From a virus (lineage: Duplodnaviria; Heunggongvirae; Uroviricota; Caudoviricetes): a DNA stretch of 64,000 bases. Under the pieces are notes generated by a model. It had not been told where the DNA came from. It worked only from the letters and a program-made list of their open reading frames with translations, and ran no database searches. Location of the stretch: the IMG/VR virus record IMGVR_UViG_2609460332_000008; one strand, given 5' to 3'. The position numbers were made by a program, and so were the translations under genes. Within the stretch, counting starts at the first letter, position 1, and each line of letters starts with the position of its first letter. Shown one piece after another: positions 11,695-28,131 of the stretch.

Positions 11695-11890
11695 GCTGTT
11701 TCTCCAGTTGCTTTATCAGGCGGAACAGCTGCCGCAGGGGCAGCTGTTCCAGGTACTGAATGCTGAATCGCGAAGACAGGTTAACCAGCAGGTTCATCAG
11801 TGCCGCCGCCAGCGGCATCAGTTCGCCCCCGCGTTGCCACCTCCTCAAGCATTTCATCCAGCGCGGCGGCTTTCGTGCTGATAAGCTCAA
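11681..11890 (-). CDS. Candidate frameshift extension of the tail assembly chaperone (alternate-frame ORF overlapping chaperone 3' end and the tape measure start)
   Basis: ORF in another register overlaps 11781..11890 and runs to the tape measure start; conserved chaperone frameshift position in tailed phages; no slippery site identified. Confidence 0.3.
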   Translation of the reverse strand: MSLSARKPPRWMKCLRRWQRGGELMPLAAALMNLLVNLSSRFSIQYLEQLPLRQLFRLIKQLEKQHGNR

Positions 11891-12176
11891 GGTCTGCCGG
11901 ATGGAGCATTCGCAGCTGTTTCATGTCCAGCGGGCCGGGAATGCTGCCGATGGCCGCAACCTGACGGCGCATCATCTCCAGCCCCATCAGCACTTCAGAG
12001 CAGTAGGCCACCGCCTTTCCATTCCCGCCCATGACGACGCGTTCTGCGGCCAGTTGTGCATCAATCACATCACTGGCGGTCAGTTCGCGCAGCTTCACGG
12101 TTTTATGCAGGGTTTCATCTGCCGTGCCTTTGCCGGTCAGAAGCCCGTGTTTCAGTTCAAATTCCATTTCAGCCAT
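11781..12176 (-). CDS. Tail assembly chaperone
   Basis: 131-aa acidic ORF between the tail tube and tape measure genes. Confidence 0.55.
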   Translation of the reverse strand: MAEMEFELKHGLLTGKGTADETLHKTVKLRELTASDVIDAQLAAERVVMGGNGKAVAYCSEVLMGLEMMRRQVAAIGSIPGPLDMKQLRMLHPADLELISTKAAALDEMLEEVATRGRTDAAGGGTDEPAG

Positions 12177-12177
12177 G

Positions 12178-12534
12178 TCACACCTTCACGCATTTTTCAC
12201 CGATAAAGTTCGCACTGATGGTGCCGGAATCCTCGTCCAGCTCCGCCGGGTTATCCGTGGCGGACCCCGTCATCATGTAGTTCAGGCCGTTGTCGCCGTA
12301 GAACATCACCGTGACGTCTTCCCAGCTGCTGATTTCAATCACGTCCATATCCGCTGCCGCCGCAATGGTCACCTTGATGGACGGCGAGGCCATCTTGCTG
12401 GAGATACCCCAGACCTTGCCGCCGCCCATATGCTGGGTGCGACTGAAGCCGCCCGGATTCAGCGTGGATTTCCCCTCGGTTTTAATTTCGCGGCCATTCA
12501 CGCGAATGGTCGCCATGCCAAGAATTTTTGCCAT
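12178..12534 (-). CDS. Tail tube protein (Mu M-like)
   Basis: 118-aa ORF directly downstream of the sheath gene. Confidence 0.65.
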   Translation of the reverse strand: MAKILGMATIRVNGREIKTEGKSTLNPGGFSRTQHMGGGKVWGISSKMASPSIKVTIAAAADMDVIEISSWEDVTVMFYGDNGLNYMMTGSATDNPAELDEDSGTISANFIGEKCVKV

Positions 12535-12543
12535 GCGGTCCCC

Positions 12544-14019
12544 TTAAAGTTTGAACTGAATCAGGCCTGCCAGCACACGCAGCTGGTTCACCAGATTCGG
12601 GTGGCAGATAAAGTTCAGGCGGTTTTTATCGCTGCTGTCGCGTGTCACCTGAAGCGTGTCCCTGTAATCGCTGAAGTTCTCCACAAGGCCTGCCGGGAGA
12701 AGTTCGGTCTGGCAGATATCCAGCAGCTCTGCGGTGCACAGCTTCGGCGTCATCACCGGCTGACCGGCATCCAGTGAGTCCAGCACGTCATCATCCGCCA
12801 GCTTGTGGCGCGGATAACGGTTCGTGAAACGGTTTTTGATGATGTAGCGGATACGGCCCAGCGTGGCGGGTGACTGCACATCCAGGTACGACACATCCGC
12901 ATCACCGTACTGATTAACCCGGTACATGGTGATTTCACGCTCGATGCAGACGTTATCCCCGGCGTCCACCATGTGCGTGGCAATGCCGTCATGCAGCAGC
13001 AGATTACGCTCCGGCATATCCCAGCGAACATTACGCGCAGGCGGCAGAATGCCGGTCAGAACCAGCGTCTGAAGCGGACGCGCCGGGTCAATGGCAAGGT
13101 GATACGCTGCCGTTGCGCCGTATGACGCGGCCCACATCCACGCCGGGTGCGGTGACAGGTTGGTGCCGATACAGCTAATCAGCCAGTCATTGCGGGTTTC
13201 ACCAAACGTGCCGGTTTCCCCGTGTGTGCCACGAAACGCCGTCCACAACTGCGCCTCCATCATTTTGAGCGGCCCCCAGCGATTCAGCAGTTCATCACGC
13301 AGGGTGTTCAGGCTTTTCGTGTCGGTAAACGGGGCGATGATATCGGTAAACCACTCCGGGCCGATGGCCGCAACGGCATCCGCCATTTCCGGTGTCCCGG
13401 TGCCGCCGGTAAACGCAGTAGCGGTCACCTTCACACCTGCCGGGAAGGCTTCACCGGTGTAGTAGTTCAGGCGAACGTCGGCACCGTTGCCGGTGACGCC
13501 GTGCCAGTTCACGGTCAGCTCCACGGTATCCGTGGCATCATCCTTCACCGCAGCGGCCACCTGCGTGGCAGGCTTTTTCGTCACCGCATCAGCAATGGCT
13601 TTTGCAATGTTTTCCTTCGTAGCCCCGGCGCTCACGCTCACCTGAACGGACACACCGTTAATCAGCAGTGCCACCGTTCCGGCTTCAGTCGCTGTACCCA
13701 GCACGGTCAGCGTGGCTTTTGCGGCAGCGCCTTCAGGCGCGGCAACCGGCATTGCCCAGGTTTCCGTGTACGTGTTGGCACGACGCAGCATTTTGAGCAT
13801 TTCAGCCAGCATCGACCCTTTGCCATAAAGCTGGTCTGCCTGGCTGTCACTGGTGATGCGGGTCAGTGACAGGGCGTCTGCGCTGCCGGACGATACCGCA
13901 TGGCCCATGACCAGAATTTTTCGGCTTTGCGCGGATGCACCCTCCAGCGCCTGTGAATTGTCGATATCGATCCAGACAAGCGGGACGCGGATATCATCAG
14001 GAATTGAACCCAGCGACAT
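12544..14019 (-). CDS. Contractile tail sheath protein (Mu L-like)
   Basis: 491-aa ORF, sheath-sized, followed by the tube gene. Confidence 0.7.
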   Translation of the reverse strand: MSLGSIPDDIRVPLVWIDIDNSQALEGASAQSRKILVMGHAVSSGSADALSLTRITSDSQADQLYGKGSMLAEMLKMLRRANTYTETWAMPVAAPEGAAAKATLTVLGTATEAGTVALLINGVSVQVSVSAGATKENIAKAIADAVTKKPATQVAAAVKDDATDTVELTVNWHGVTGNGADVRLNYYTGEAFPAGVKVTATAFTGGTGTPEMADAVAAIGPEWFTDIIAPFTDTKSLNTLRDELLNRWGPLKMMEAQLWTAFRGTHGETGTFGETRNDWLISCIGTNLSPHPAWMWAASYGATAAYHLAIDPARPLQTLVLTGILPPARNVRWDMPERNLLLHDGIATHMVDAGDNVCIEREITMYRVNQYGDADVSYLDVQSPATLGRIRYIIKNRFTNRYPRHKLADDDVLDSLDAGQPVMTPKLCTAELLDICQTELLPAGLVENFSDYRDTLQVTRDSSDKNRLNFICHPNLVNQLRVLAGLIQFKL

Positions 14020-14219
14020 TATTTTTTCCCTCTGGTTTTGTTGCTATTTTTCGGAAGCGCGGTTATTTCCACATCTCCTTCGGCTTCACGGCGCAGCCAG
14101 TAAGCGCAGACGTCGAGACGTTCCCCTTCCGGGGATAAATGCGCGCCATCCGGTTTACGGACACGGACGTTTTCCCGCGCTGGCTTAATCAGTTTCTGTT
14201 CCATCGTCACCCCGTACAT
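14019..14219 (-). CDS. Small hypothetical virion-module protein (66 aa)
   Basis: ORF start overlaps upstream gene end; conserved position upstream of the sheath gene. Confidence 0.4.
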   Translation of the reverse strand: MYGVTMEQKLIKPARENVRVRKPDGAHLSPEGERLDVCAYWLRREAEGDVEITALPKNSNKTRGKK

Positions 14220-14796
14220 GGATCACGTCGTTAATCTCAGTATGTTCACCGCTACGCAGCGTTGCCCCGAGGCGCAGGAAGTCCGGGAGCGCGGCGAGAT
14301 CAATCTCTTCATCCAGCTGAAATTCCTGCTCCCACGTCACCGCCCACATGGTGACGCCCAGCCCGTCGAGGCTGGCGGAGTAAATGTTGTCTGCCCGCAC
14401 ATCAGCAGCCATGCGTTCAGCCCCCATGCCCCCGGTGGCATCCGACGACAACAGGCGTTTGATCACCTTCCCGGCCAGCACTTCACAGCGCACGTCGCGG
14501 GAGTACCCCCACGAATCCGTCGCCATGATGTAAGCCACCCAGGTAACCAGACCGGACAGCCCGCCGCGCGGGTTGATATCCCGGACACGCAGGGCAGCTA
14601 CCCGGATACAGCCGGTGCGACCGGACAGATAGCGTTTGACTTCCTCCGGGCTGTTGAACTGGCCGATGTGACGCTCCACCACGTCAGCCCGGTCAGGGGT
14701 TTTCCCCTGAAGTGCTGTTTTCAGCCAGGCCACAATGCGCTCTGCGGCCGCAACGGTGCTCCCCGGTGTGCGCAGTTCAGGGCGTTGTTCTGTCAT
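14185..14796 (-). CDS. Hypothetical head-tail / neck module protein (203 aa)
   Basis: ORF in the structural operon between head and tail genes. Confidence 0.45.
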   Translation of the reverse strand: MTEQRPELRTPGSTVAAAERIVAWLKTALQGKTPDRADVVERHIGQFNSPEEVKRYLSGRTGCIRVAALRVRDINPRGGLSGLVTWVAYIMATDSWGYSRDVRCEVLAGKVIKRLLSSDATGGMGAERMAADVRADNIYSASLDGLGVTMWAVTWEQEFQLDEEIDLAALPDFLRLGATLRSGEHTEINDVIHVRGDDGTETD

Positions 14797-15338
14797 GGCA
14801 GAACCTCCTTCCAGAAATGACTGATAACCTGTTGCAGCTCCTGCTGGTTGGCAGAAGACAGCCCCAGAAATTCACGTTGCGGAATGTTCATCATGCGGTT
14901 ATGTGCGCCGACGGTCTGCCAGACCGGATATTTCAGCGCCCGCCCGAAACACTGCGAGATAAGCCGTTTGTGGGCGCTGACCGGCACACTGCCGGAAAAG
15001 CCGTCATTCATGATGCGGGCATAATCCAGCGGTGAACCGATACGCACCACGCGGTTTTCCACGATGTACTGGATACTCTCCAGCAGATGGCCTTCACCAC
15101 GCAGCAGACTCTGGTTGCCGTGGCGGGTCTTTTTGTACCCGTCAGACCAGTCCGGCCAGCGTTCGCCACCCGGACTGGTTTTCTCATCAATGATGCGGCG
15201 GCGGGTCTGTGATTCCACCACCGCACCGATGCTCTCCAGCAGCTCTGCCTGCAATGAACCATCTGCCAGCTTTTCAACGGCACGGCGGATATCCTCCAGC
15301 CGCTGGTCACCGCTGACCTGTACAGAAATCCCCATCAC
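14793..15338 (-). CDS. Putative virion morphogenesis / tail completion protein (181 aa)
   Basis: ORF in the structural operon; overlapping start and stop with neighbours. Confidence 0.45.
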   Translation of the reverse strand: MMGISVQVSGDQRLEDIRRAVEKLADGSLQAELLESIGAVVESQTRRRIIDEKTSPGGERWPDWSDGYKKTRHGNQSLLRGEGHLLESIQYIVENRVVRIGSPLDYARIMNDGFSGSVPVSAHKRLISQCFGRALKYPVWQTVGAHNRMMNIPQREFLGLSSANQQELQQVISHFWKEVLP

Positions 15339-15772
15339 AGCACCCCTTTCAGGTTGTTACGGGTGAACAGCCGGGCATTGGCACCCACCACAATGATCTT
15401 CCCGTGGTCGGTTTCTGCCGGGGTGGCATACGTCGGCAGACCCAGGTCACGGGTGCCGTTCGCCATCTCACGCAGGGTTTTAATGGCGTCGTCGTAGCGT
15501 TTCTGGATCAGCTCCGTGATTTGATTGTCACGCTCTGACAACCAGTAAAACGCCAGCGATACCGCCACGCGTTGCAGCGGGCGCGGGATTTCCGTCACCC
15601 CCAGCGGCAGCTGGTAGCGGCGGGACAGAAACGAATCAATTTCCGCTTCGGCATCACTGATGGCCTGACGGATTTTGTCTTCATCCAGTTCGTTGGTTTC
15701 CCGGTTAATCGCCATGTTCCAGACAAGATTGCCGTCCGCGCGTAACAGGTCTTCCTGCGTGATATACCCCAT
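15335..15772 (-). CDS. Hypothetical head-tail connector-like protein (145 aa, Mu gp36-like)
   Basis: ORF downstream of the major head gene in Mu order. Confidence 0.45.
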   Translation of the reverse strand: MGYITQEDLLRADGNLVWNMAINRETNELDEDKIRQAISDAEAEIDSFLSRRYQLPLGVTEIPRPLQRVAVSLAFYWLSERDNQITELIQKRYDDAIKTLREMANGTRDLGLPTYATPAETDHGKIIVVGANARLFTRNNLKGVL

Positions 15773-16083
15773 CAGCCTTTCTCCGCTTCCCGGACAATCA
15801 GATTCGGCTCTGCCATCAGGCGGGTGGCAACCGCAGCGCTCACCGCCACATCCTCACCGGCATGTGACCAGAAACGACCACAGCGCCAGAACCCGTTTTC
15901 AGACACGGCCCGGACGTTCAGCCGGACAGGGGCGTCCCCCTGTACAACAGCCGGGTCTTCAGCCGGACGTGGTTCATTCGCCTGACCGTCAGCCACAATA
16001 ACGTCTGCCAGCGGTGCCGGGTTTTCCTGTGCTGCGCTGTTCTTTGCGGCTTTCGCGCCTTTGGTTCCTGCTTTTTCACTCAT
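15772..16083 (-). CDS. Hypothetical head protein (103 aa)
   Basis: ORF immediately downstream of the major capsid gene. Confidence 0.4.
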   Translation of the reverse strand: MSEKAGTKGAKAAKNSAAQENPAPLADVIVADGQANEPRPAEDPAVVQGDAPVRLNVRAVSENGFWRCGRFWSHAGEDVAVSAAVATRLMAEPNLIVREAEKG

Positions 16084-16154
16084 GACTCTGCCTTTTGAAA
16101 GGCAGTTAAAAGGGCATTCACAACGCCTTTTAACTGCAATTTACGGATGACGGG

Positions 16155-17057
16155 TTATGCCGGGGTGGTGATGAACGGACTGACCACGATGTCCACATCC
16201 TTGTACCAGATGTTGGAATCGCCGCCGTTTACCAGCATGGCGTCAATGATGCGCTTCGCAGCCGCGCGATTTTTCGGTCCCACCACAAGGGTGGTCGGGC
16301 GGATGCCCAGCGGTTCACCGTTGGTGGCCTTCATACCCAGCAGCAGATTACTGGCGCTCTCGTAGTTCTCCGCTGTCAGTGCCGCACGGGAACCGACGGC
16401 GGTTTGCCAGAAGCCGAATCCTGCATTACAGCGACCGTCCACCCCGTACAGGAACTCGTTATTCTTGAAGGTGTGCTCGCTGTTCAGATCGTCCAGGGCT
16501 TCAAACTTAAAGGCGCGTCGCGTCTGCCAGATGATGGGTTTCAGTACCTGAGAATCATCAATCAGAAACCACGGTTCCCCCTGGTCTGATGCCGGGGTGC
16601 CGACAACGTTGCTGTATGTGCCGTCGCCCAGCGGGTGGTCTTCATCAAAGAAGTTCTGACCGTCAAAACACAGGGTGTTAAACCCGGCACACAGCAGGGG
16701 GTAACACAGCTTGTCCGGGAACTCTGACGTCTGGCGGCCATAGCGTTCAGCGATAATGCTGTACTGACCAATCTGATCGTCTTCAATGTGTTCGCGTTTA
16801 ACGCGGATCGAACTTTCCCAGGTTTTGTTCGCAAGGGTGTAACCATAACCGTCCAGCGTTGCCATCTGACGGGCGCTGACCCATTCTTTAATCTCCGGTA
16901 AATCTTTCATCCAGCCGTAGGTATTGGAAGCGGACGAACTCGGGATTTCAGAGGCGATGCGCTGCCACTGTGGGGTAACACCACTCAGACCACGGGTATA
17001 AGCGGCGCTCAGGCAGGTGGTCAGCGCGTGAAGGACTTCGGAAGTGACTGCTCCCAT
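16155..17057 (-). CDS. Major capsid protein (Mu T-like)
   Basis: 300-aa ORF following the protease/scaffold gene; conserved Mu-like head order. Confidence 0.7.
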   Translation of the reverse strand: MGAVTSEVLHALTTCLSAAYTRGLSGVTPQWQRIASEIPSSSASNTYGWMKDLPEIKEWVSARQMATLDGYGYTLANKTWESSIRVKREHIEDDQIGQYSIIAERYGRQTSEFPDKLCYPLLCAGFNTLCFDGQNFFDEDHPLGDGTYSNVVGTPASDQGEPWFLIDDSQVLKPIIWQTRRAFKFEALDDLNSEHTFKNNEFLYGVDGRCNAGFGFWQTAVGSRAALTAENYESASNLLLGMKATNGEPLGIRPTTLVVGPKNRAAAKRIIDAMLVNGGDSNIWYKDVDIVVSPFITTPA

Positions 17058-18019
17058 CAGTTATTCTCCTGTTTCGGTTTAGCGGCGAGGAACTCTTCCC
17101 CGGTAATACCCATGCTGCGGCACATCGCCAGTTCGGCGTCGGTCAGTGTCTGCGCGGGTTTATCCTTGCCCTGGCTGGGCTTGTCGTTGTTCACCAGCGG
17201 CTGTGCACCTCTGGTGTATTCCGCAAACTGTTTGCGGCCTTCTTCCGTGCGGCAGGTGGCAAGGAACATGTCACGGTTTGCCGGGGCCACTTTTCCGGCT
17301 TCGATGGCCGCATCCACAAGCGCTTCTGCTTCCTTAGCTTCCAGTTGCTGAAGGCGTTGTTCTGCGGTTTCTGCACGGTTCAGTGCCAGATTGTGGGTTT
17401 CCACCGGCACAAACTTCGTCAGGTCAGGTGTCTGTGCGCGGTTCAGCGCCACCTGTTCGCTCTCCTGAAGTTGTTTAATGGCGGCCACGGTATCGTCCAC
17501 CGTGGCGGATTCAGCCAGCCCAAGCAGGCCGGTGATTTGCACAGGTACTGTCATCGGGTTTTTCTCCGTATTCAGTGCAGGAAAATCCAGGTTAGGTTTG
17601 TTGGTCAGCCCGACGCTGGACAGGCGCGTCACCACACCCTCCGCGTCATGGAAAAACGCCGGGCTGTAATAGCGATAGCGGCGCTCGCTCAGCATCCACC
17701 TGGCGGATTCACTCCAGACAACACGCCCTTCAATGATGCCGTTGTCCGTCACCCGCAGTTCTTCCACCCAGCCATACGCCGGGGCTTCATCACCGCGTTG
17801 CCCTTTAATTTCGGTGGCGTGTTCAATGTCCACCGGAATTTTGATGTCGGACGAGCGGGTGACCACCTCATGCGGATTGCGGTTAATCCACGTCCGGCCA
17901 TCGCGCCCGGTGAACTCACCCGCAGGGACGAGTTCAAGCCATTCCGGCAGTTGAGCGGGTGTCAGCTCAGGGATGGGTTCTGGCAGGGAAAAACACAGCG
18001 CCAGCAGTTCCGGTTGCAT
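17057..18019 (-). CDS. Prohead protease / scaffold protein (Mu I-like)
   Basis: 320-aa ORF with Ala/Glu-rich coiled-coil C-terminal half (scaffold-like), upstream of the major capsid gene. Confidence 0.65.
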   Translation of the reverse strand: MQPELLALCFSLPEPIPELTPAQLPEWLELVPAGEFTGRDGRTWINRNPHEVVTRSSDIKIPVDIEHATEIKGQRGDEAPAYGWVEELRVTDNGIIEGRVVWSESARWMLSERRYRYYSPAFFHDAEGVVTRLSSVGLTNKPNLDFPALNTEKNPMTVPVQITGLLGLAESATVDDTVAAIKQLQESEQVALNRAQTPDLTKFVPVETHNLALNRAETAEQRLQQLEAKEAEALVDAAIEAGKVAPANRDMFLATCRTEEGRKQFAEYTRGAQPLVNNDKPSQGKDKPAQTLTDAELAMCRSMGITGEEFLAAKPKQENN

Positions 18020-18068
18020 GTCAGTCTCCGTCGTTTGGGGTTACCGACGGTCAGTATGCGGAAGGCAG

Positions 18069-18090
18069 AAAAAAAGCCGGATTTACCGGC
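18069..18090 (-). terminator. Rho-independent terminator between F-like and I-like genes
   Basis: Minus-strand hairpin GCCGG-TAAAT-CCGGC followed by a U7 run; 26-nt sequence identical to 25804..25829. Confidence 0.6.
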
Positions 18091-18232
18091 TTCACTGAAA
18101 ACGGGAAAATACCCCCTTCAAAACCCCTTCAAAAACGCCACAGCATCTTCAAAAACGTCAGAATGCACATTCACGCCATCAGAATAAAAAACGCGTTTCT
18201 GATGCGTTTCAGGGGGATTTGCGGCGGGAGGG

Positions 18233-18997
18233 TTACTCTCTGTCAAAACGGGCCTGTTTTGTCGCCAGCTGGCGCGCCAGCGCCTGCTCACGGTTTATGC
18301 CGGGATTGTAGTTCCAGCCCGGATCAATCCCTTCCGGCACCTCTTCCTCTTCGCCCGTGCGTTTGTTCACCCAGCGGACAGTTCTGATTTCCGGCGCTTC
18401 GGTGTGAATGGTGCCCTGTGCCGCCAGTTGCGCATATTCACCACGGCTGACCTGACGGATGGTGCATTTGCAGCCCCAGCCGTTAGGGGCGAAATGTGTC
18501 AGCCAGAACGGATGATCAACCGGCAGACACAGACGTGCCCATTTCACATGCTCCGCCCGGTGCTCGCGGGATGGTCCCAGCTCGTAAATCAGATACGGCA
18601 TGGCCCGCTTTGTCCGCTGGATGCGTTCCCACTGGCCCGCCGCGCGGGCGGTGCGCATGTTGGTATCAAAAATCGTGCGGAGGCGGCGGTCGCTGCCCAG
18701 TTGCACGGTGCGGGTTTCGCCCGTCAGCGGATCATCCATCTCCTGAACACCCCACCATCCGCGTTTTATCAGCAGCGGTTGCAGCGCCTCCCGGAACTCG
18801 CTGAACGTCTGTCCGCTTTGCAGGGCGTCTTCCACAAGGGCTTTCACATCCGACAACAAATCCAGTTGCAGCATTTTTGCCACGGTGAAGCTGTTCCGGT
18901 GTTCTTCCCGCCACACATCCCGGTAATCAAAACCGGGGCGCAGCTTCTTCGCCTTCAGCCACGCCAGCGCCTCTTTCGGGATGAGGGTTTCACGCAT
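18233..18997 (-). CDS. Head morphogenesis protein (Mu F-like)
   Basis: ORF directly downstream of the portal gene; start placed at ATG 18995-18997 after the portal stop. Confidence 0.6.
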   Translation of the reverse strand: MRETLIPKEALAWLKAKKLRPGFDYRDVWREEHRNSFTVAKMLQLDLLSDVKALVEDALQSGQTFSEFREALQPLLIKRGWWGVQEMDDPLTGETRTVQLGSDRRLRTIFDTNMRTARAAGQWERIQRTKRAMPYLIYELGPSREHRAEHVKWARLCLPVDHPFWLTHFAPNGWGCKCTIRQVSRGEYAQLAAQGTIHTEAPEIRTVRWVNKRTGEEEEVPEGIDPGWNYNPGINREQALARQLATKQARFDRE

Positions 18998-20561
18998 GGC
19001 CGGTGTCCCCCAGCGCACGCGCCTTAAAGCACACCTCCGCCAGTTGCAGGGCAAAGTCGTCCGCGTTCAGCGTTTCCTGAAGCTCAGGCAGACGTTTCAG
19101 AAAGTCATCAAAACTGTCGCATTCCTGCGCCAGTGTCAGCACCGGGTTCGTGAACACCTCGCCGGTTTTCTGCCAGTCACGCAGGGCATCATCCACCATC
19201 AGCGCCAGTTCGTCGGAGTGTTCACGGTTCAGGGCGACGCGCTCGCGGTTCATCGCCACATCACCTGACATTCCGGCAGACACCGGATGCAGAACATCAG
19301 CCCCGTCGTCCGGTTCAGCCAGGCCGAACCGGTCCCGCAGCTCCGATTCCTGAACCCGCATCCCCCGGTCAATCAGCGGCACCAGAGCATCTGTCAGCGC
19401 CTTCAGATCTTCCGCTTCACTGATACGCAGAACAACACGGGGGTAGTGCGCCTGTGGCCCGTAGTTGGCCTCGATGTAGGGCCGCACCAGATATTCATTC
19501 AGCGTGTTAGCCAGCTGCCGCGCGTCCCAGCGCACAATGTCCATGCGCACCTGATTGTGCACGTCCGCCTGTGAACGCGAACTGCCGTTATCCGTGGTCA
19601 TGGTCTGCCCCAGCACAGCCTTACTGATTTGCGCATCACACCATTCCGCCATTTCACGGAACAGTGCGCCGCCGTTATTCCGGCTGGCGGTTTCCTTCAT
19701 TTCCAGTTGCATGGACTGCGGAATGGCACACCCGGCATCCGAGGCAATGGAAGCAATCGCATCAATCAGCACGCGGATTTGCTCCTCCGTGGCGTTGGGG
19801 CCGTATTTCCCCACTGTAACCGGAATGCCGAACTTTTCCGCAAATGCCCACCAGTCGCGCACGGTAAAGGATTTCAGCATGTACATCACCGCCACCAGAC
19901 GGGCCAGACCGTTACGCAGCGGCAGACCGGATTTCAGGCGCGGCTGGTGAACAATGAATTTTCCCGGTGTCAGCGGTACGCCATCCACCGGTTCATCGTC
20001 AGTCAGCAGGCGGAACTGGCGCAGCGTGGTTTTTTCGGCTTTCAGAAAACGGGGATCAACCCACTCATAATCACGGGGCATCCAGTGGTTTTTGTGGGTA
20101 TTCCACAGGATTTCACAGACCGCCACGCCTTTTCCCAGCCCGTCGAGCAAATCAAACATCAGTTCGGGGATTTGCGGGGCTTCCATCAGTGCACGGATGG
20201 CGTCCGCCAGTTGCACGTCAGCATCGTCATCACTGGCGGCCACCACCACCGGTTCGATACCCGCCACCGTCAGCTTGCGGGTGCGCAGCACCGAGGCGTA
20301 ATGCAAATCACGTTCTTCCATCTCTTCGGCAAGGATAAAAAAATCACGCGTGATGCCGTCGGCGGCATTGCGCAGAATGCCTGCCAGCCTGCCGGGATTC
20401 AGCCCGGAAGCAATGCTGATGCCCGGCGAGGCCGAACGTACGCCAGCCTGACGCGGGCGGGCCTGTGCTTCATTGAGCGCCTCTTTTTTCAGGGTGTCGC
20501 CCTCGCCGGTTGTCGGGTTCAGCAAATGACGAACATCCCCGGTCTGTTGTTTCAGGTTCAC
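18990..20561 (-). CDS. Portal protein (Mu H / gp29-like)
   Basis: 523-aa ORF downstream of the terminase large subunit gene. Confidence 0.7.
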   Translation of the reverse strand: MNLKQQTGDVRHLLNPTTGEGDTLKKEALNEAQARPRQAGVRSASPGISIASGLNPGRLAGILRNAADGITRDFFILAEEMEERDLHYASVLRTRKLTVAGIEPVVVAASDDDADVQLADAIRALMEAPQIPELMFDLLDGLGKGVAVCEILWNTHKNHWMPRDYEWVDPRFLKAEKTTLRQFRLLTDDEPVDGVPLTPGKFIVHQPRLKSGLPLRNGLARLVAVMYMLKSFTVRDWWAFAEKFGIPVTVGKYGPNATEEQIRVLIDAIASIASDAGCAIPQSMQLEMKETASRNNGGALFREMAEWCDAQISKAVLGQTMTTDNGSSRSQADVHNQVRMDIVRWDARQLANTLNEYLVRPYIEANYGPQAHYPRVVLRISEAEDLKALTDALVPLIDRGMRVQESELRDRFGLAEPDDGADVLHPVSAGMSGDVAMNRERVALNREHSDELALMVDDALRDWQKTGEVFTNPVLTLAQECDSFDDFLKRLPELQETLNADDFALQLAEVCFKARALGDTGHA

Positions 20562-22093
20562 AGTAAACCTCCCTCATTTTTCAGGCCGCGTGTCAGCTTC
20601 ATCTGGCGGCGCGTGTTGCCTTCTTCCGGTTTCGCCGGGCGGTTCAGGCGGTGCAGCTCGTAACGGTGGCAGTCATCCTTGCTGGCAAGGAAGCCCAGGA
20701 AAATGGCCACAGCGGCGTCGCCGTGACGCTTGCGGCCATCACTACCTTTAGTACGGGCATCGTCAATGCCGGGAACACCACGCAGTAACTGAATGGCCCC
20801 GAGGTCATTGATCACGTCTTCATGCTTCGGAAGGATCAGCTCATCATCTTCAAACGCTGCACGGAAACGGGGCATGTTTTCGCGGTAGAACGCCACGGAC
20901 AGCATCACCTGTTCCACCTCATCGCCGTACCGCTCCGCCGCCTGTTCTGCCAGATACTGACCATTCCCCCGTGCATCCATTTTGATACCGTCACGACGGG
21001 GCAGACGATCGCAAAGCCAGAACAGCACCTGCTCCTGCTGTTTAAACGGCACATTGCCAAGCTCAACCAGGAACGGCACCTCGCGGGTGGTGTCATCGTT
21101 CACCGTCACCGGGGCCAGTACGGTCAGGTCACCCGAACGCGCAAAGTCTTCCCCCAGACAGTGGCGCAGGTTCTTCGGGAGTTTTTCCAGCTCGGGACGC
21201 ACCACTGTTTCCAGCCATTCCCGGATATCTGCCCGGCGCTGACTTTCCGTCAGTGCGTTAAATTCCGGTGTGCCGGTAAAGCGCAACACTTTTCCGGTGC
21301 CACGGGCCGCACGTTCACGCAGTGAGCGGGGGATATACGTGCCGCCGCCGTTTTTCGGGACGCAGTAATATTCCTCCAGGGCGTCTTCGCGGGTGGCGGT
21401 ATTTCGCAGCAGGCCTTCTTTCCATTCCGCTTCGGCTTCCGGTGACCACACCATGCCGCGCACCTGACAGATACGCCGGTACAGCCCGTCATTGCAGGCG
21501 TCATCCAGCGTGATGGTGTGAATGCGGTAATCCCGTTTTCCTGCGCGGCTTTCCAGAATCAGCTGGTTAAACAGGTTGTCCACGCCGTCATGGGTGGAAA
21601 TAAGGCGAATTTTTCCGCCCCATGTTTTCAGCGGCAGCACAGCCTTCAGCAGCTCGTCCAGTTTTTCATGGAACGCGGCCTCGTCGATGGTGACATTCCC
21701 CTGCATCCCGCGAATGTTGCTCGGGTTGCTGGACAGTGCCTTGACCTTAAAACCGCTGGCGAAGTACACGACGAACGTCAGAATGTCCTTGTCTTCGTCG
21801 GTGATCACTTCCTCGCAGATTTCTTCCGCTGCCGCATTAAACGCTTTCGCCCACATCGCCACGGCGTCGATAAATTCGCGGGCCATCTCCTTATTCGAAC
21901 CGATATAAAAGTGATCGCGCCCGCCGAATTCCTTCTTCAGTGATGCAGTCAGTGCCGCATCTGCCGCCTCCGCCCAGGTTAAACCGGTACGGCGGGATTT
22001 CTCGGCGATTTTCAGGTCGGCATCATCCGCCACCCAGCGTTTCTGATACGGCAGCAGAACATCGGATTCACTGAACGTGTTCATCTGTGTCAT
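20558..22093 (-). CDS. Terminase large subunit (Mu gp28-like)
   Basis: 511-aa ORF upstream of the portal gene. Confidence 0.7.
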   Translation of the reverse strand: MTQMNTFSESDVLLPYQKRWVADDADLKIAEKSRRTGLTWAEAADAALTASLKKEFGGRDHFYIGSNKEMAREFIDAVAMWAKAFNAAAEEICEEVITDEDKDILTFVVYFASGFKVKALSSNPSNIRGMQGNVTIDEAAFHEKLDELLKAVLPLKTWGGKIRLISTHDGVDNLFNQLILESRAGKRDYRIHTITLDDACNDGLYRRICQVRGMVWSPEAEAEWKEGLLRNTATREDALEEYYCVPKNGGGTYIPRSLRERAARGTGKVLRFTGTPEFNALTESQRRADIREWLETVVRPELEKLPKNLRHCLGEDFARSGDLTVLAPVTVNDDTTREVPFLVELGNVPFKQQEQVLFWLCDRLPRRDGIKMDARGNGQYLAEQAAERYGDEVEQVMLSVAFYRENMPRFRAAFEDDELILPKHEDVINDLGAIQLLRGVPGIDDARTKGSDGRKRHGDAAVAIFLGFLASKDDCHRYELHRLNRPAKPEEGNTRRQMKLTRGLKNEGGLL

Positions 22094-22692
22094 GCGCTAA
22101 TCCCCAGAAGTTCACGTTTGATGGTGTCAGCCGCACCGCCTGACAGACCGCCCGTTCTGACCAGTTCTTCGGTTTTCTCTGCCATCTCCTGCGCAAACGC
22201 ATCGCGGATCGCTTTCTCGCGTTTATGGCTGGTCATGGCTGCCGCTTCCAGACGTTGGGCAACCAGCGCCAGTTGGCCCAGCGCCTTCGGTGCAACAGGT
22301 TTGTCATCTTCTGCCATCGACATGGACGTTTCAAAGGCCAGCGTTTTTACAAACTCCATCAGCAGCTTGCCGACGTCTGACGTCGGCGCGGAACCCAGCT
22401 TTGCCGCCCAGACTTCGGCCATTTCGCGGGAGGCGCGGATTTTGGCCCCGACTTTTTCCATGCGGATGGCATAGCGGTTTAAGCCCGTCCGGCTTAACTG
22501 CATCTCTTCCGGCAGGTTATGTTCGTCAATCAGGGCGTTGATGGCTTCGCGGATTTCTTCCTGTGTGTGCCGCTTTTCCCGCAGCATCTGATGCAACTGC
22601 TCCCGGATGCTGTCCGGGAGTAAATCCACTTTGGAAAGACGGCCACGGGTGGGGCGTTGTTCATTTTCCATGTGTGCCCTCCTGTTGCTCAC
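22090..22692 (-). CDS. Terminase small subunit-like DNA-binding protein (Mu gp27-like)
   Basis: 200-aa basic/acidic ORF overlapping the terminase large subunit start. Confidence 0.55.
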   Translation of the reverse strand: MSNRRAHMENEQRPTRGRLSKVDLLPDSIREQLHQMLREKRHTQEEIREAINALIDEHNLPEEMQLSRTGLNRYAIRMEKVGAKIRASREMAEVWAAKLGSAPTSDVGKLLMEFVKTLAFETSMSMAEDDKPVAPKALGQLALVAQRLEAAAMTSHKREKAIRDAFAQEMAEKTEELVRTGGLSGGAADTIKRELLGISA

Positions 22693-22808
22693 TACGCTGT
22701 GAACTTTCGTATGCAGATTTCAGCGCGCCACTCTGGATTTCACGCCATGTCAGGTTGTGCGCCAGACGGCGGAGTTCATCACGGGACGCTTTACTTATCG
22801 GATTCTTT

Positions 22809-23108
22809 TTACGGTTCACGACGGCCCCCGTCTTCAGTTCCCGGTGTTTTCAGACCGGCGTATATTTCTTCGCGAACGGAGCGGATATCCTTACCCAGCA
22901 GCTTCCACAGCCGCGCACATGCCGGTGATGAACGCAGGGCACGTTTCATGGGGGTATCCGGTGCATCCGGGTTCCAGGGCTTTCCGGTCTGTTGTTCGTA
23001 TGCACGGACAATGGCGTTTTGCTCAATATCTGCCAGCACAAGGCAGTACGCCAGTTGCCGCACGACGGCCCGTTCTCCGCGACTTAACGGCTTCAGTTTT
23101 CGGGCCAT
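22809..23108 (-). CDS. Hypothetical protein (99 aa)
   Basis: ORF in the late region between lysis genes and terminase; no recognisable motif. Confidence 0.4.
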   Translation of the reverse strand: MARKLKPLSRGERAVVRQLAYCLVLADIEQNAIVRAYEQQTGKPWNPDAPDTPMKRALRSSPACARLWKLLGKDIRSVREEIYAGLKTPGTEDGGRREP

Positions 23109-23110
23109 GC

Positions 23111-23404
23111 TCAGTCCCTCGCACGGGGTTTTTTAACGCCCGGAACGCTGGACAGGCCGTTTGCCACATCCTCGCCGCTGCCGGTGATTTCAGCCACGTA
23201 ACAGCCGCCCACATCAGACAGACGAACCAGCCCCTGCTCGCGCAGCCATGCAAGCTGGGTGCGCACCACATCACGGGATACCTTATGACCGTAGGCCTGA
23301 AGGCAGGTCTGCAACACGGATTCATTCGCGCTGTCGCCACAGTCCAGCAGGGAACGCAGCAACACAAGACGACGGTCTTCAGTGAGGATCTCTTTCATCG
23401 CCAT
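23111..23404 (-). CDS. Hypothetical protein (97 aa)
   Basis: ORF tightly packed with neighbours. Confidence 0.4.
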   Translation of the reverse strand: MAMKEILTEDRRLVLLRSLLDCGDSANESVLQTCLQAYGHKVSRDVVRTQLAWLREQGLVRLSDVGGCYVAEITGSGEDVANGLSSVPGVKKPRARD

Positions 23405-23709
23405 TATTTTTTTTCCTTTAACTCGTTCTCTAATAACAAATCGCTGATGCGGGATACCTGGCGGATGGATGGCCCCAGCTCTTTGATTTCTCCCCGCAGG
23501 TTGCTGATATCCAGTTGCAGGCGGTGGAACTCATCACGGTCGGGTAAATGGTGTACCTGGCTTTCCATCACCGACATGCGGGAACGGAGTGAATCAAACT
23601 CTTCGCGTTTGACGTAGGTTTTCGCCAGAATCAGCTGAAGCAGGTTTATTCCTGTCATCAGCAATGCCCACAGAATGGGCCAGTTGGCTCTGATCATTTC
23701 CCAGGACAC
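23404..23709 (-). CDS. Membrane-anchored coiled-coil protein (101 aa), possible lysis accessory protein
   Basis: N-terminal hydrophobic segment WPILWALLMTGINLLQLILA followed by a charged coiled-coil region. Confidence 0.4.
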   Translation of the reverse strand: MSWEMIRANWPILWALLMTGINLLQLILAKTYVKREEFDSLRSRMSVMESQVHHLPDRDEFHRLQLDISNLRGEIKELGPSIRQVSRISDLLLENELKEKK

Positions 23710-23921
23710 GTTTTCCTCCTGCGTTCCCGCATCTGCTGACAGTCAATACAGGTCACCACATCCGGCAGCGCCGCAAGGCGCTGTGCCGGAATAACGTTCC
23801 CGCAGTCATTGCAGAAGCCCCGGCTGTGGGGCGCTTCTTTTGCCCGCGTCTGCCAGGCTTTAACGACGCTCTGACGCTCGTTCAGAACCACTTCACTGAT
23901 GCGGTCGATTTCGTCGGTCAT
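23694..23921 (-). CDS. TraR/DksA-family C4 zinc-finger protein (75 aa)
   Basis: CNDCGNVIP...CIDCQ four-cysteine motif in a small basic protein. Confidence 0.6.
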   Translation of the reverse strand: MTDEIDRISEVVLNERQSVVKAWQTRAKEAPHSRGFCNDCGNVIPAQRLAALPDVVTCIDCQQMRERRRKTCPGK

Positions 23922-24526
23922 TTCGGCCCCGCAGACATTTTGTGACGGCTCGATTTGCTGTAACGGGCAAAACCGTCAAGGGTTCTTACGCCGAGATAGC
24001 CCAGCGCCGGGGTAAGCAACATCAGCGTGATATCCCAGTCCGGTGACGGCATATGCAGCGAGATACCTCTGGCACAGGCAATGGCTCCGGCAATCTGGCC
24101 GCAGGAGAGCAACAGCACATAGGCCAGACTGCTGTAACAGGAAAGGCGGGCCAGCAGCGGGCGCGTCTGGCGCACATAGCTGTCCGTGGCGTTGTCACCA
24201 TTGCGGATGGTTTCCTGCTGTTCGTGGTGTGCGGCCTGCTGGTCAGCCAGCACCAGCTTCTGCCGTTCCACCTCCAGCTGTTGCAGCTGAATTTTCAGGG
24301 TTTCCAGTTGCACCAGTTGCTCCGGTGACAGCATCACCAGTTTTTGTTCCAGAATGCGTTGCTGTTCAGCAACGGGAAGGCTTTCCCGGACGCTTTCCAC
24401 CATACCGGCCACCGAGTCAGCGGCGGCAGATGTACTGCCACCAAACCAGCGCCCGACGGAACGAATCAGCCCCGGCCCGGCTTTCAGCAGAACAGAGGCG
24501 ATGCCTGAAAGGGTTAACGGATCCAC
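23918..24526 (-). CDS. Lysis-associated membrane protein with central coiled coil and C-terminal transmembrane segments (203 aa, GTG start)
   Basis: GTG at 24524-24526 preceded by GGAGG; coiled-coil LEQKLVMLSPEQLVQLETLKIQLQQLEVERQKL; two C-terminal hydrophobic segments. Confidence 0.45.
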   Translation of the reverse strand: MDPLTLSGIASVLLKAGPGLIRSVGRWFGGSTSAAADSVAGMVESVRESLPVAEQQRILEQKLVMLSPEQLVQLETLKIQLQQLEVERQKLVLADQQAAHHEQQETIRNGDNATDSYVRQTRPLLARLSCYSSLAYVLLLSCGQIAGAIACARGISLHMPSPDWDITLMLLTPALGYLGVRTLDGFARYSKSSRHKMSAGPK

Positions 24527-24939
24527 GGGAAACCTCCATACAGATAACGCTGAAGACAGAGCAGACCGCCGCAACTGCCACCACACAGCCAGAACACCGG
24601 ATGCACCGGTGACATCATCATCAGCGTGCTGAAGACGCAGCAGAAATATCCCAGCGCCCAGACCACCCATGACCACACGATGATGTGGCGACCAAAAGCC
24701 CGGTAACGGACCTCAGGCAGCAGGCGAAATGGCACATTCCCGAGGCTTGCGCTGTATGAAAACAACACCACCCCGGCAAAGGACAACAACATCAACACGA
24801 ACGATCGCCAGCCACATAACATGCTGATGATGAACATGCAGAGTGTCAGTCCGGCCAGCGGCCATGGGGTTCTCATCAGTCGGGAACAAAGCAGCCAGTC
24901 ACACAGTTTTAAAATTTTGTTCATTACCTTTTTCCACAT
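24514..24939 (-). CDS. Multi-pass membrane protein (start uncertain; may begin at a later Met near 24876)
   Basis: Strongly hydrophobic segments (LTLCMFIISMLCGW, VLMLLSFAGVVLFSY, VVWALGYFCCVFSTLMMM); N-terminal part of the long ORF is probably not coding. Confidence 0.45.
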   Translation of the reverse strand: MWKKVMNKILKLCDWLLCSRLMRTPWPLAGLTLCMFIISMLCGWRSFVLMLLSFAGVVLFSYSASLGNVPFRLLPEVRYRAFGRHIIVWSWVVWALGYFCCVFSTLMMMSPVHPVFWLCGGSCGGLLCLQRYLYGGFPWIR

Positions 24940-25150
24940 TGAATTTTTCCCTGTACTTCTGGCACTGCCAGAAAATGTCCCGTGTATCCACGGAGTTCCA
25001 GCCACGCATGTAGTAGCTGGCGTGTGTGCCGTCATGGCCGGTATAGTCCAGCGGTTTCGGGGGCGGACCTCCGGCCATGCGGTGCAGAACCTCCTGACGC
25101 AGGCGGTCACGCCGCCCGGCTTTCAGTGAGGCATCCCAGCCTTTGCCCAT
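24899..25150 (-). CDS. Hypothetical protein (83 aa) immediately downstream of the lysozyme-like gene
   Basis: ATG adjacent to the upstream stop; Trp/Tyr-containing soluble-type sequence. Confidence 0.4.
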   Translation of the reverse strand: MGKGWDASLKAGRRDRLRQEVLHRMAGGPPPKPLDYTGHDGTHASYYMRGWNSVDTRDIFWQCQKYREKFNVEKGNEQNFKTV

Positions 25151-25151
25151 A

Positions 25152-25748
25152 TCACCCCCGCGTGGCGGACATGATGCCCAGAGGGGTATCGATGATTTCC
25201 AGACAGGCGTCGGTCAGTTTTTCCATGCGGTTAAACCAGCCGTTCAGGTATTTACCCTGGGCGGGTTTTGACTTGATGATGTCGGCATAAAAGCGGGAAC
25301 GACGGACAATGCAGCGGGCCAGCAACCAGTCCGGGGTGAACAGACTCACGGCCTTACGGGTACGTGGGCCGATGATGCCGTCAGCATCCACATCAGCGGC
25401 TTCCTGCAAAATTTTGATGGCTTTTTTAACGCCATGCTGAACCGCTGCATCGAACACAAACATCGCCACGCCATCAGGCCACTGGTCACATCCGGCAGGC
25501 AGCCAGTAATCGCGCCAGTAAATCTGCGCGACCTGTTCGCGGGTTAAATCCTTAATGCGGGTATCCGGTTTGCCGTCGCCGTTGACATCGGTTTTGCCGT
25601 CAATCACACCGTCGCGGCGGTCAGAAATGCCGTATTTGGTTTCGCCGCCACGGTCAGTGGGGTCATTGACATAGACGCCTTCGATATCGGGACGCAGAAT
25701 GAAATTCAGCGCATGCTCAAAGGCCGGGGAGAATTTTTGATTTTCCAT
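25152..25748 (-). CDS. Peptidoglycan hydrolase, GH108-like lysozyme with peptidoglycan-binding C-terminus (putative endolysin)
   Basis: Motif EGVYVNDPTDRGGETKYGIS typical of the GH108 muramidase family; first gene after the early-operon terminator. Confidence 0.6.
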   Translation of the reverse strand: MENQKFSPAFEHALNFILRPDIEGVYVNDPTDRGGETKYGISDRRDGVIDGKTDVNGDGKPDTRIKDLTREQVAQIYWRDYWLPAGCDQWPDGVAMFVFDAAVQHGVKKAIKILQEAADVDADGIIGPRTRKAVSLFTPDWLLARCIVRRSRFYADIIKSKPAQGKYLNGWFNRMEKLTDACLEIIDTPLGIMSATRG

Positions 25749-25803
25749 AAAAGCACCTGTGAAGCAGATTTAAACGTGGTCTGCTTCATGGTGCCGGAGG
25801 CAT

Positions 25804-25825
25804 AAAAAAAGCCGGATTTACCGGC
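25804..25825 (-). terminator. Rho-independent terminator at the end of the early operon
   Basis: Minus-strand hairpin GCCGG-TAAAT-CCGGC followed by U7, directly after the Mor/C-like gene stop. Confidence 0.65.
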
Positions 25826-25833
25826 TTCATTGA

Positions 25834-26283
25834 TTAAGGGCGTCGTGGCGGACGACGAACGGGGTGAGGCAGGTTCGGGGAGGGGTAAAACAAATCCGGC
25901 TGGTATTTATTGCGCTCCAGACGTCGCATCCGTTTGATGGCCTTGTAGACGGTTTTATACGTCACCCCGTAACGCTGAACCAGTTCAGGAATATTATGGC
26001 CGTTAAAATCACGCCAGATACGCATATCCCGGACAAGATTCTCCAGAATATTCCCCCTCGGAACATAAACCTGCATCCCGCCGATATGGCGACAAATCGC
26101 CACAACCAGCTCAAGGGAATGGGCAGGGTCTGCACCAATCCGGGCCAGTTCTTTACGCAGCAGTGCGTTCAGTTCAGAAAGTAACGCCGGATAAGCGGTG
26201 TTTTCCTGGTAATCATGAAGATATTCCAGAACGCTGTCGTCCCGAAGGTCTTCGAATAAATCCTGCTCTTTCATCTGTTTCAT
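25834..26283 (-). CDS. Mor/C-family transcriptional activator (149 aa)
   Basis: C-terminal region IWRDFNGHNIPELVQRYGVTYKTVYKAIKRMRR resembles the Mor/C helix-turn-helix region; ATGA start/stop overlap with gemA. Confidence 0.65.
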   Translation of the reverse strand: MKQMKEQDLFEDLRDDSVLEYLHDYQENTAYPALLSELNALLRKELARIGADPAHSLELVVAICRHIGGMQVYVPRGNILENLVRDMRIWRDFNGHNIPELVQRYGVTYKTVYKAIKRMRRLERNKYQPDLFYPSPNLPHPVRRPPRRP

Positions 26284-26831
26284 ACAGCAATTCTCCCGCT
26301 GTTTCGTGCGCGGGCATACGCACTGGTCAGTGCATCATAGCCGCGCAGCTCCCGCCCGGTTTCGCTCACAGGTAAAGGCACACCATGTCGGGCAAAGGCT
26401 TCCCGGATGCAGCGCATATGCCACTGTTTGAGCGTTTCGAGCACAATCTGCAACGATTCCCCGTGACACCATGCCAGCGTGGAAACACCCTGACCGCCAT
26501 TACGTCTGGCCGTCAGGCGTTCAACGTATTTGTCCAGCGCGGCGTCGCTGATATCGGAAACGAAACCATCAAGGAACATCTGCTGCCAGATTTTGTAAAT
26601 CTTCTCGCGCGGTGTGACATGCCCCTTAAAGCGACGGCGGGGATGTTTTTTCTGCTTCTTAAAACCGCGCTCTTTCATGGCATCGAGCACCTGTTCCAGT
26701 TGTGCGACAGTCAGCTCGCGGCAACTGGTCTTGCCTGTGCACTGCACCAGAAAGGCGCGGTAAGTGTCATCGTCGAGTTGTAGATCACGACGGGCGACAT
26801 GAATTAATTTAATCAGGGATGTGCGATTCAT
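26280..26831 (-). CDS. gemA: GemA-like protein (Mu gp16 family)
   Basis: MNRTSLIKLIHVARRDLQLDDDTYRAFLVQCTGK... in the gemA position ahead of the Mor/C-family gene; identity assigned from recollection, so the symbol is tentative; start at ATG 26829-26831 with GGAGG upstream. Confidence 0.55.
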   Translation of the reverse strand: MNRTSLIKLIHVARRDLQLDDDTYRAFLVQCTGKTSCRELTVAQLEQVLDAMKERGFKKQKKHPRRRFKGHVTPREKIYKIWQQMFLDGFVSDISDAALDKYVERLTARRNGGQGVSTLAWCHGESLQIVLETLKQWHMRCIREAFARHGVPLPVSETGRELRGYDALTSAYARARNSGRIAV

Positions 26832-26904
26832 TATCGTACCTCCAGAAAAGGGGGCGGTGCGGCAACACCGCCAGAATCCACTCACTAAACAGAGGAAGCT
26901 TTTT

Positions 26905-27171
26905 ATGAAAAACAGTGAACAACCTTATGATGTTGCAGGGTATACCATTGCCTCAAGGTTGCTGATACTCCTTGTCAGAAAGGGGCTGATTACCGCAGAG
27001 GAAGGAAAAACAATCCTCAAATCCGCTGCAGTCGTAGCTGCAGAGGCTCCGGTATTGAGAACAACGAATGATTCCGCCCTGCAAATATCGCAGCTAATCA
27101 CTGAAACCATCAGTTTGTTAGACCAAGATCCTGATGAATATCAAAAGCCTCAGCCATCTGAGCATCCGTAA
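26905..27171 (+). CDS. Candidate opposite-strand small protein (88 aa) in a gap of the Mu early operon
   Basis: ATG at 26905 preceded by AGGAAG at 8-nt spacing; protein-like composition; competes with a 61-aa minus-strand ORF (26925..27110). Confidence 0.3.
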   Translation: MKNSEQPYDVAGYTIASRLLILLVRKGLITAEEGKTILKSAAVVAAEAPVLRTTNDSALQISQLITETISLLDQDPDEYQKPQPSEHP

Positions 27172-27424
27172 GAATATCTTTATTTGATAGCCCCAGCCTG
27201 CGACGAATGTATTCCTCGCGGGCTGCTTCATTTTGTAGCGCCACGGCAGCTTCCACCTGGTTCATTTCACGGTTAATAATGCTCCGGACTTCTCTGGCGG
27301 TGAGGTCATGCTCAATACCATATTTAACGATATCGTGCATACGTTCCAGCATCTTTAAATTAGCCATGACGCCATCAATATCAACTGGTGTGAATTTCAT
27401 TTCTTTATTCTCTGGTTTATTCAT
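27110..27424 (-). CDS. Hypothetical early-region protein (about 105 aa)
   Basis: ORF in the semi-essential early region; start placed at internal Met MNKPENKEMKF. Confidence 0.4.
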   Translation of the reverse strand: MNKPENKEMKFTPVDIDGVMANLKMLERMHDIVKYGIEHDLTAREVRSIINREMNQVEAAVALQNEAAREEYIRRRLGLSNKDILTDAQMAEAFDIHQDLGLTN

Positions 27425-27599
27425 TTCGTAATACCTCTTCGCAATAAAAGATTTCACTGGGATAACGTTTTTGTATGCGCTCCATCACCTGCATACATGC
27501 CTGTTCTGTGGGCCAGATTTTTTCCGTTACCGGAATGGCATCGCAGGCATCATTCCCACAGGTGCCAACCAGCAGGACAAAGCCAATTGACTTAATCAT
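27417..27599 (-). CDS. Small putative lipoprotein (about 60 aa)
   Basis: MIKSIGFVLLVGTCGNDAC signal peptide with a lipobox-like LVGTC. Confidence 0.4.
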   Translation of the reverse strand: MIKSIGFVLLVGTCGNDACDAIPVTEKIWPTEQACMQVMERIQKRYPSEIFYCEEVLRNE

Positions 27600-28131
27600 G
27601 CTCGCTGATTTCCTGTGTTTCCGCCGGAACCGGTGAATAATCAAGAATGAGATAGCGCAGGACGTGGTCGGTGATATTCCAGCCACTGGAACCACAAATA
27701 AAGCGCCCCAGCCGGATATCGATATACGCCATCACAAAACGGGGCATCCCCTGTTTGCACATCTCGTCATCCACTTCAGCAACGATGTAAACCGACTCGC
27801 AGGTCAGTACGCCTGTCGCAAATTCTTTTGCCAGTGCCGGAATTGCATTGCCTTCCAGCCAGGGCAAAGAGCGGCGGAACGCACACCATTGAGCATCATC
27901 AACAGCGGGGTGCTCCGTTGCGTTTCGTCTTACAGGAGGCGTCGGACGAGGGCGCGGAACATCATAAAATCCGTTGCATTCTGTCAGCATTCCGGCATCA
28001 ACCGCATCACGCAGGAAATACACCATTGACGAGGGAGGCATCTTCATTTTTTCAGCCAGAACGCCACAGGTCAGACGCCCGTAAGCCCGTAATAATGTGC
28101 TGACACCGTTCAGAACTTTTGCATCAACCAT
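27592..28131 (-). CDS. Hypothetical early-region protein (179 aa)
   Basis: ORF downstream of gam in the early operon. Confidence 0.45.
   Translation of the reverse strand: MVDAKVLNGVSTLLRAYGRLTCGVLAEKMKMPPSSMVYFLRDAVDAGMLTECNGFYDVPRPRPTPPVRRNATEHPAVDDAQWCAFRRSLPWLEGNAIPALAKEFATGVLTCESVYIVAEVDDEMCKQGMPRFVMAYIDIRLGRFICGSSGWNITDHVLRYLILDYSPVPAETQEISEHD

Follow-up and report, generated by a model that had tools for sequence, protein, structure and literature searches.

Morons, as defined for HK97 and lambda, are independent transcription units inserted between two genes of an operon, and HK97 gp15 and lambda bor and lom are examples. The closest described counterpart of the gene analyzed here lies in phage Mu, where the RefSeq record NC_000929 annotates an antisense gene as gp15 (Mup15, NP_050619.1). 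The same gene appears in the 1991 record M64097 as the putative ORF 'F-134' (UniProt Q38493). The two Mu reference records conflict at this point: NC_000929 shows antisense gp15, whereas the current curated record, AF083977.1, shows the 55-aa Mu_54 on the early strand, to which it gives a 3-nt ribosome-binding site. The change from gp15 to Mu_54 is not discussed in the paper accompanying the AF083977.1 update. In the Mu locus used for comparison (L001), gp15 spans 2802..3068 (+), the complement of Mu 7896..8162, and Mu_54 spans 2837..3004 (−), corresponding to 7960..8127. Phage SfMu carries a homolog annotated as SfMu_16, likewise antisense to the early operon. The literature searched yielded no paper on gp15 and no expression data.

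The window, which is the whole 64,000-nucleotide stretch analyzed here, contains a homolog of this gene. Its 88-aa plus-strand ORF is very probably a genuine protein-coding gene of the Mu gp15 type, antisense to the early operon and placed in a variable slot, with the 61-aa minus-strand ORF as its shadow. Annotations of such a gene already exist in Mu and in RefSeq genomes of E. coli; the finding is real and ordinary. The features of the locus are collected in Table 1.

Table 1. Features of the gp14-gemA region and of the prophage that carries it, in window coordinates
Feature	Position	Strand	Remarks
Mu-like prophage, complete	640..34209	minus	Contains the gp15-like gene, gemA and the gp14 homolog; early operon on the minus strand
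mor	25834..26283	minus	Early operon
gemA (gp16 family)	26280..26831	minus	Pfam GemA E 6e-33; PGAP "gp16 family protein"
Conserved inverted repeat GGCGGTG-CGGCAA-CACCGCC	26853..26872	minus	Followed by CCCTTTTCT, then the gemA Shine-Dalgarno
Shine-Dalgarno-like GAGGAAG	26892..26898	plus	Ends 6 nt before the plus ATG
gp15-like protein-coding gene, 88 aa, ATG	26905..27171	plus	Homolog of Mu gp15 (Mup15), PHROG 8747
Shadow ORF, 61 aa, ATG	26925..27110	minus	Counterpart of Mu_54 (AF083977.1); judged non-coding
Convergent overlap, 62 nt	27110..27171		Plus-ORF 3' end (last 20 codons and stop) with gp14-homolog 3' end
Mu gp14 (E15) homolog, PHROG 6075	27110..27424	minus	phrog_6075 E 3e-42; PGAP WP_042856716.1; aligned with Mu gp14
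Stem-loop followed by CUUCAUUUUGU, candidate plus-strand terminator	27194..27225	plus	Inside the gp14-homolog coding sequence
gam	28230..28754	minus	Early operon

The prophage in the window matches a prophage of E. coli KFu019, annotated from the repressor to mom, at 99.4% identity across 33,573 bp. Its ends are of the Mu type and are bordered by a 5-bp target duplication, CCAGC, at window 635..639 and 34210..34214. The flanks differ from those of the KFu019 copy, as expected for a Mu-like phage, which is transposable. The early operon is ordered repressor, ner-like gene, transposase, B ATPase, small genes, gam, gp14 homolog, gemA and mor on the minus strand. The gp14 homolog is the early gene upstream of the gap before gemA. 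Both ORFs exist with the lengths and positions that the earlier note had described, and each starts with ATG; the gap, which it had put at 280 bp, measures 278 bp from the gp14-homolog stop (27110..27112) to the gemA start. The plus ORF and gemA are divergent, with start codons 73 nt apart. Alignment of phage Mu with window 26601..27411 gives 78% identity, and both ORFs recur in Mu at corresponding positions.

A tblastn comparison of the two candidate peptides with Mu recovers the plus protein over 87/88 residues at 53% identity (E 1e-21) and gives no match for the minus protein at E<0.01. The plus protein also matches phrog_8747 through residues 1-86 (E 6e-26) and the Mu-type cluster P0003 by phmmer (E 7e-18), and an exhaustive HMMER search found five related clusters with lengths of 76-90 aa. 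Mu gp15 resembles the window protein in its 88 residues, with the same start and stop, in its placement between gp14 and gemA, in its antisense orientation and in its 62-nt convergent overlap with gp14; the two sequences differ mostly after residue 38. A convergent overlap is likewise present in SfMu, D108 and the loci L015, L037, L011 and L038. The match names the gene without explaining its function, because gp15 is uncharacterised. PGAP annotates the plus ORF in every examined E. coli prophage that holds it (WP_079916120.1 in KFu019), and among 5,426 complete E. coli genomes 27 have a cassette of the window type. A scan of genome contigs found no relatives, and profile searches brought in no members from outside the Mu-like prophages of enterobacteria.

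Immediately upstream of gemA lies a variable slot, which in related phages holds nothing, a remote homolog or an unrelated gene, and any gene that it holds is always antisense. An antisense gene within the early operon had been taken to be unusual for Mu-like phages. This view is not supported, since Mu, SfMu and E. coli prophages carry the homolog in the same way and at least three further gene families occupy the antisense slot in other Mu-like phages. The lineage L015-L019 has its homolog in the same slot and on the same strand. All antisense genes in the slot run convergently into the 3' end of the early gene upstream and overlap it. In Yersinia phage vB_YpM_3 the cassette is missing, precisely from the gp14 stop to the hairpin that precedes gemA, and two synonymous changes in its gp14 place a TAA in what would be the plus frame. 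No antisense gene was found at the junction in L010, L012, L034, L036 and L039. A clean mosaic boundary at the RRRLG motif of gp14 was also considered and dropped, as the gp14 tails are diverged yet homologous.

Several occupants of the slot illustrate its range. Phage D108 has an unannotated 119-aa antisense ORF (L013 1801..2160 (+), the complement of GQ357916.1 7853..8212). It lies between gene 14 and gemA, in an 'empty' gap of 376 bp; its ribosome-binding site is good, and it matches PHROG 38610 (E 8e-83). E. coli DETEC-S792 has a 79-aa antisense gene, WP_001280088.1, that matches phrog_32893 (E 1e-45). This profile is also matched by gp15 residues 4-43 (E 1e-7) and by residues 34-77 of the D108 ORF (E 5e-7), both in one consistent register. 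Compared directly, gp15 and the D108 ORF give a weak hhalign match (E 0.003), whose register agrees with the phrog_32893 profile matches, and a BLASTP comparison that is not significant (E 0.29). The link between them comes from the PHROG profile matches together with the weak hhalign match. PHROG 32893 and the D108 ORF share with gp15 the slot, the orientation and the convergent overlap with a gp14-like gene, along with an N-terminal core of about 40 residues, [YF]-[DG]-[VI]-[AT]-[GA]-[YF] ... L ... L ... G-[LIV]-I. They differ from it in that the similarity is at the profile level only, the C-terminal halves are unrelated and the DNA is unalignable. Recognition of the unannotated D108 ORF as a remote gp15 homolog is a useful by-product of the comparison. 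The antisense genes that occupy the slot in STEC383 (131 aa) and JE86-ST02 (136 aa) are members of PHROG 585, an unrelated family; the JE86-ST02 gene has a weak DUF2513 match as well.

Two copies of the gene depart from the usual form. In one assembly, L019, an insertion sequence with a Transposase_mut (IS256-family) gene lies at 3236..4444 in the 3' end of the gp15 homolog and replaces the tail of the protein (P0005, 90 aa). P0006 (76 aa) looks like a frameshifted copy of the Mu type. Both altered sequences suggest that the gene is dispensable.

The ambiguity between the two strands was real. The two ORFs share third-codon positions, so that synonymous-site arguments cannot separate the frames, and the comparison was made by amino-acid scoring and ORF integrity. 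Reasoning of the dN/dS kind was dropped, as the shared positions make synonymous changes alike in both frames. The openness of either ORF was rejected as evidence: synonymous resampling shows each to be readily open given the other. When the plus ORF is recoded synonymously, 21% of trials for the window and 86% for Mu leave an open minus frame no shorter than the one observed; when the minus ORF is recoded in this way, the plus ORF remains open in 15% of trials for the window and 55% for Mu. With wobble positions shared, an open minus frame is therefore to be expected.

Asking which ORF the orthologous regions keep, the right test and one that the earlier note had named, gives an answer in favor of the plus strand. 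Each of the 27 loci that have the family (11 nucleotide haplotypes) keeps an intact plus ORF. In comparisons with diverged lineages, which draw on only three or four independent lineages, the plus frame is the best of the six, with 31-37 of 66 residues identical and BLOSUM62 scores of 162-178, against 27-32 of 65 and 101-132 for the wobble-sharing minus frame and scores of 7-113 for the remaining frames. Variable columns number 36, 28 and 54 at plus-frame codon positions 1, 2 and 3, respectively. The most diverged lineage is L015-L019, with a protein 47% identical; it is absent among the 5,426 complete E. coli genomes. In this lineage the plus ORF, with its Shine-Dalgarno, is intact and is the sole substantial ORF, and stops interrupt the minus frame, which also has no start codon. 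Beyond these lineages, the N-terminal core is common to proteins whose DNA no longer aligns, which is hard to explain without plus-strand translation. The coding strand in the window is settled by this comparison, and the answer agrees with RefSeq.

The opposite assignment makes the minus ORF (Mu_54) the real gene, translated within the early operon by coupling to the stop of the gp14 homolog, with the plus ORF as its shadow, and has several points to recommend it. The minus ORF sits on the strand of the early operon and is annotated in the current curated Mu record. It is open in the window, Mu and SfMu lineages, starting in each beside the gp14 stop, to which its translation may be coupled; in the window, stop and ATG form TGATG (27112..27108) with one base in common, rather than the ATGA arrangement first described. 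With the minus protein fixed, the plus ORF stays open in the resampled fractions given above. Examined as an early-operon gene, however, it lacks sequence conservation across related phages. Its amino-acid conservation falls below that of the plus frame in every diverged pair, it is broken in L015-L019, where the plus ORF is intact, and it escapes detection in Mu by tblastn at E<0.01. Even between the window and Mu its product changes, from 61 to 55 aa and from pI 4.8 to 10.0, with a shifted start position. It has no good Shine-Dalgarno, and the alternative cassettes of D108, L037, L011 and L038 have a long ORF only on the antisense strand. This assignment is highly unlikely, and the minus ORF is most likely a by-product of the plus gene. 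A compromise is that the Mu, SfMu and window lineages translate both ORFs as an antisense dual-coding pair. In its favor, both frames are open in these three lineages, each with a plausible initiation context, and dual coding costs comparatively little when wobble positions are shared. This too is improbable, given that openness of the minus frame is at chance level once the plus protein is fixed, that no minus-frame conservation beyond the chance expectation was found and that the L015 lineage has lost the minus frame.

A third possibility is that neither ORF is translated and that the segment is regulatory DNA or RNA for gemA-mor, comprising a semi-early promoter, an attenuator hairpin and an antisense RNA. 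It draws attention to the conserved hairpin beside the gemA ribosome-binding site. The presence of this hairpin had been recognized correctly, with slightly wider coordinates (26851..26873) than the actual ones in Table 1. Its predicted RNA fold has an energy of −16 kcal/mol (z −1.55), and on the early strand it is terminator-like, matching the pattern of an intrinsic terminator, a G+C-rich stem with a U tract, with the tail CCCTTTTCTG; stronger tails follow it in L037 (CATTTTTTAT) and L015 (TCTTTTTCGG). It is found in nine lineages (window, L001, L003, L011, L013, L014, L015, L037 and L038), with one compensatory change from T-A to C-G in L038, and Rfam has no match in the region of the hairpin and the gp15-like gene. 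In Mu the hairpin lies within the annotated 'semi-early promoter', and for the gem operon constitutive expression in lysogens is reported (reference 71 of PMC3820752). The hairpin resembles an attenuator, or a stabilising 5' hairpin, of gemA-mor. Against a regulatory segment without translation stand the conservation of the start, Shine-Dalgarno and length of the plus ORF, the retention of the plus protein across lineages with DNA down to about 60% identity and the remote homologs with unalignable DNA. Moreover, the hairpin of vB_YpM_3 persists in the absence of the cassette and so does not depend on it. From this retention and its position beside the gemA Shine-Dalgarno, the hairpin belongs to gemA expression rather than to the gp15-like gene. 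A purely regulatory segment is hence very improbable. The comparative evidence favors gp15 over Mu_54 where the Mu annotations conflict, as judged from the sequences compared; identifying this disagreement between the reference records is one modest by-product of the analysis.

Candidate expression signals accompany the plus gene. The ribosome-binding site AGGAAG proposed for it is present (26893..26898), at a spacing of 6 nt rather than 8. A purine-rich AGG or AAGG stands at the equivalent place in Mu, L015, L037, D108, L038 and L011, and a Shine-Dalgarno is found in all lineages. A crude consensus scan, of a kind that misses activator-dependent promoters, found no sigma-70-like promoter upstream on the plus strand in the window, Mu or L015; in L037 it gave one plus-strand match (9/12) about 130 nt before the ATG, which equals the expectation from shuffled sequence. 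Downstream, the candidate terminator begins 23 nt past the plus-ORF stop, with an RNA fold of −21.1 kcal/mol (z −2.8). The equivalent stem in L015 is called as a plus-strand terminator with 12 pairs and the tail TTTGGTT, and a TransTermHP terminator prediction falls at the corresponding site of Mu. This stem-loop also encodes the conserved gp14 motif AREEYIRRRLG, which makes its conservation ambiguous.

The protein encoded by the plus gene is small (9.6 kDa) and acidic (pI 4.8). Its AlphaFold (AF2) model has a mean pLDDT of 75 and contains helices at residues 10-25, 31-47 and 61-73. The C-terminal tail is of low confidence (pLDDT 50-67) and corresponds to the part read from the antisense of gp14. 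Fold and family searches with the plus protein gave no informative match, and PADLOC gave none. Residues 23-39 (VRKGLITAEEGKTILKS) resemble the motif of the SHOCT-like domain PF22746, but the 16.0 bits that they score (E 0.009) fall short of the gathering score of 27, and by the Pfam criterion the protein is not a member; the motif also lies in the N-terminal half here and not at the C-terminus.

This locus can be compared with morons. At one fixed point, with conserved genes on either side, some phages have the cassette and others do not, and different cargo is found there: among close relatives vB_YpM_3 lacks it, and D108, STEC383, DETEC-S792 and JE86-ST02 have other cargo. The gp15 cassette is also oriented against the operon around it, and a stem-loop with a U tract follows it. 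It differs from morons in that no promoter was identified for the gp15-like gene and that its expression in the lysogen is a proposal. It differs further in that the candidate terminator is inside the neighboring gene, with the last 20 codons of the cargo being antisense to the gp14 homolog. The recurrence of antisense cargo beside gemA across the Mu-like phages of enterobacteria makes gp15 a reasonable candidate for an accessory function expressed in the lysogen, in a phage that has been studied very thoroughly.

We tentatively propose that the gene is an independent accessory, moron-like unit, expressed mainly under early repression and damped by convergent early transcription. The ribosome-binding site and the stem-loop terminator embedded in the gp14 homolog would both serve the gp15-like gene, which, like the co-oriented repressor gene, would be expressed mainly in the lysogen, where the early operon is repressed. 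After induction, convergent early transcription would damp it. The product is predicted to be cytoplasmic, small and acidic, with three helices and a tail that is probably disordered, and would most likely act by binding another protein. Candidate roles are exclusion or defence, or the control of leaky early transcription into gemA-mor. A broader and more doubtful extension is that the slot is a conserved site for antisense cargo in enterobacterial Mu-like phages and that the superfamily formed by gp15, PHROG 32893 and the D108 ORF provides a prophage-phase factor, either for exclusion or defence or as a brake on gemA-mor. As a brake, the protein and the convergent transcript might together stop leaky early transcription short of gemA-mor in the lysogen. 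If the prophage-phase reading were true, the 2022 re-annotation of Mu would have removed a real gene in favor of a shadow ORF.

Two further observations concern relatives of this locus. L015 and L016 contain a second gene oriented against the early operon, at 2052..2387 (+), between mor and gemA. It encodes 111 aa, adjoins a 63-aa gene on the early strand and has no PHROG match. E. coli STEC388 (L041, NZ_CP041425.1 2846855..2886854) contains a closely related Mu-like remnant inserted in fliH. This copy includes a 761-bp match at 100% and is collinear with the window only over 24802..29050. The remnant ends after the lysozyme region, where it is cut by an IS66-family element (ISCro1), and it abuts a second prophage with a TIR-domain gene between the Q antiterminator and holin genes.
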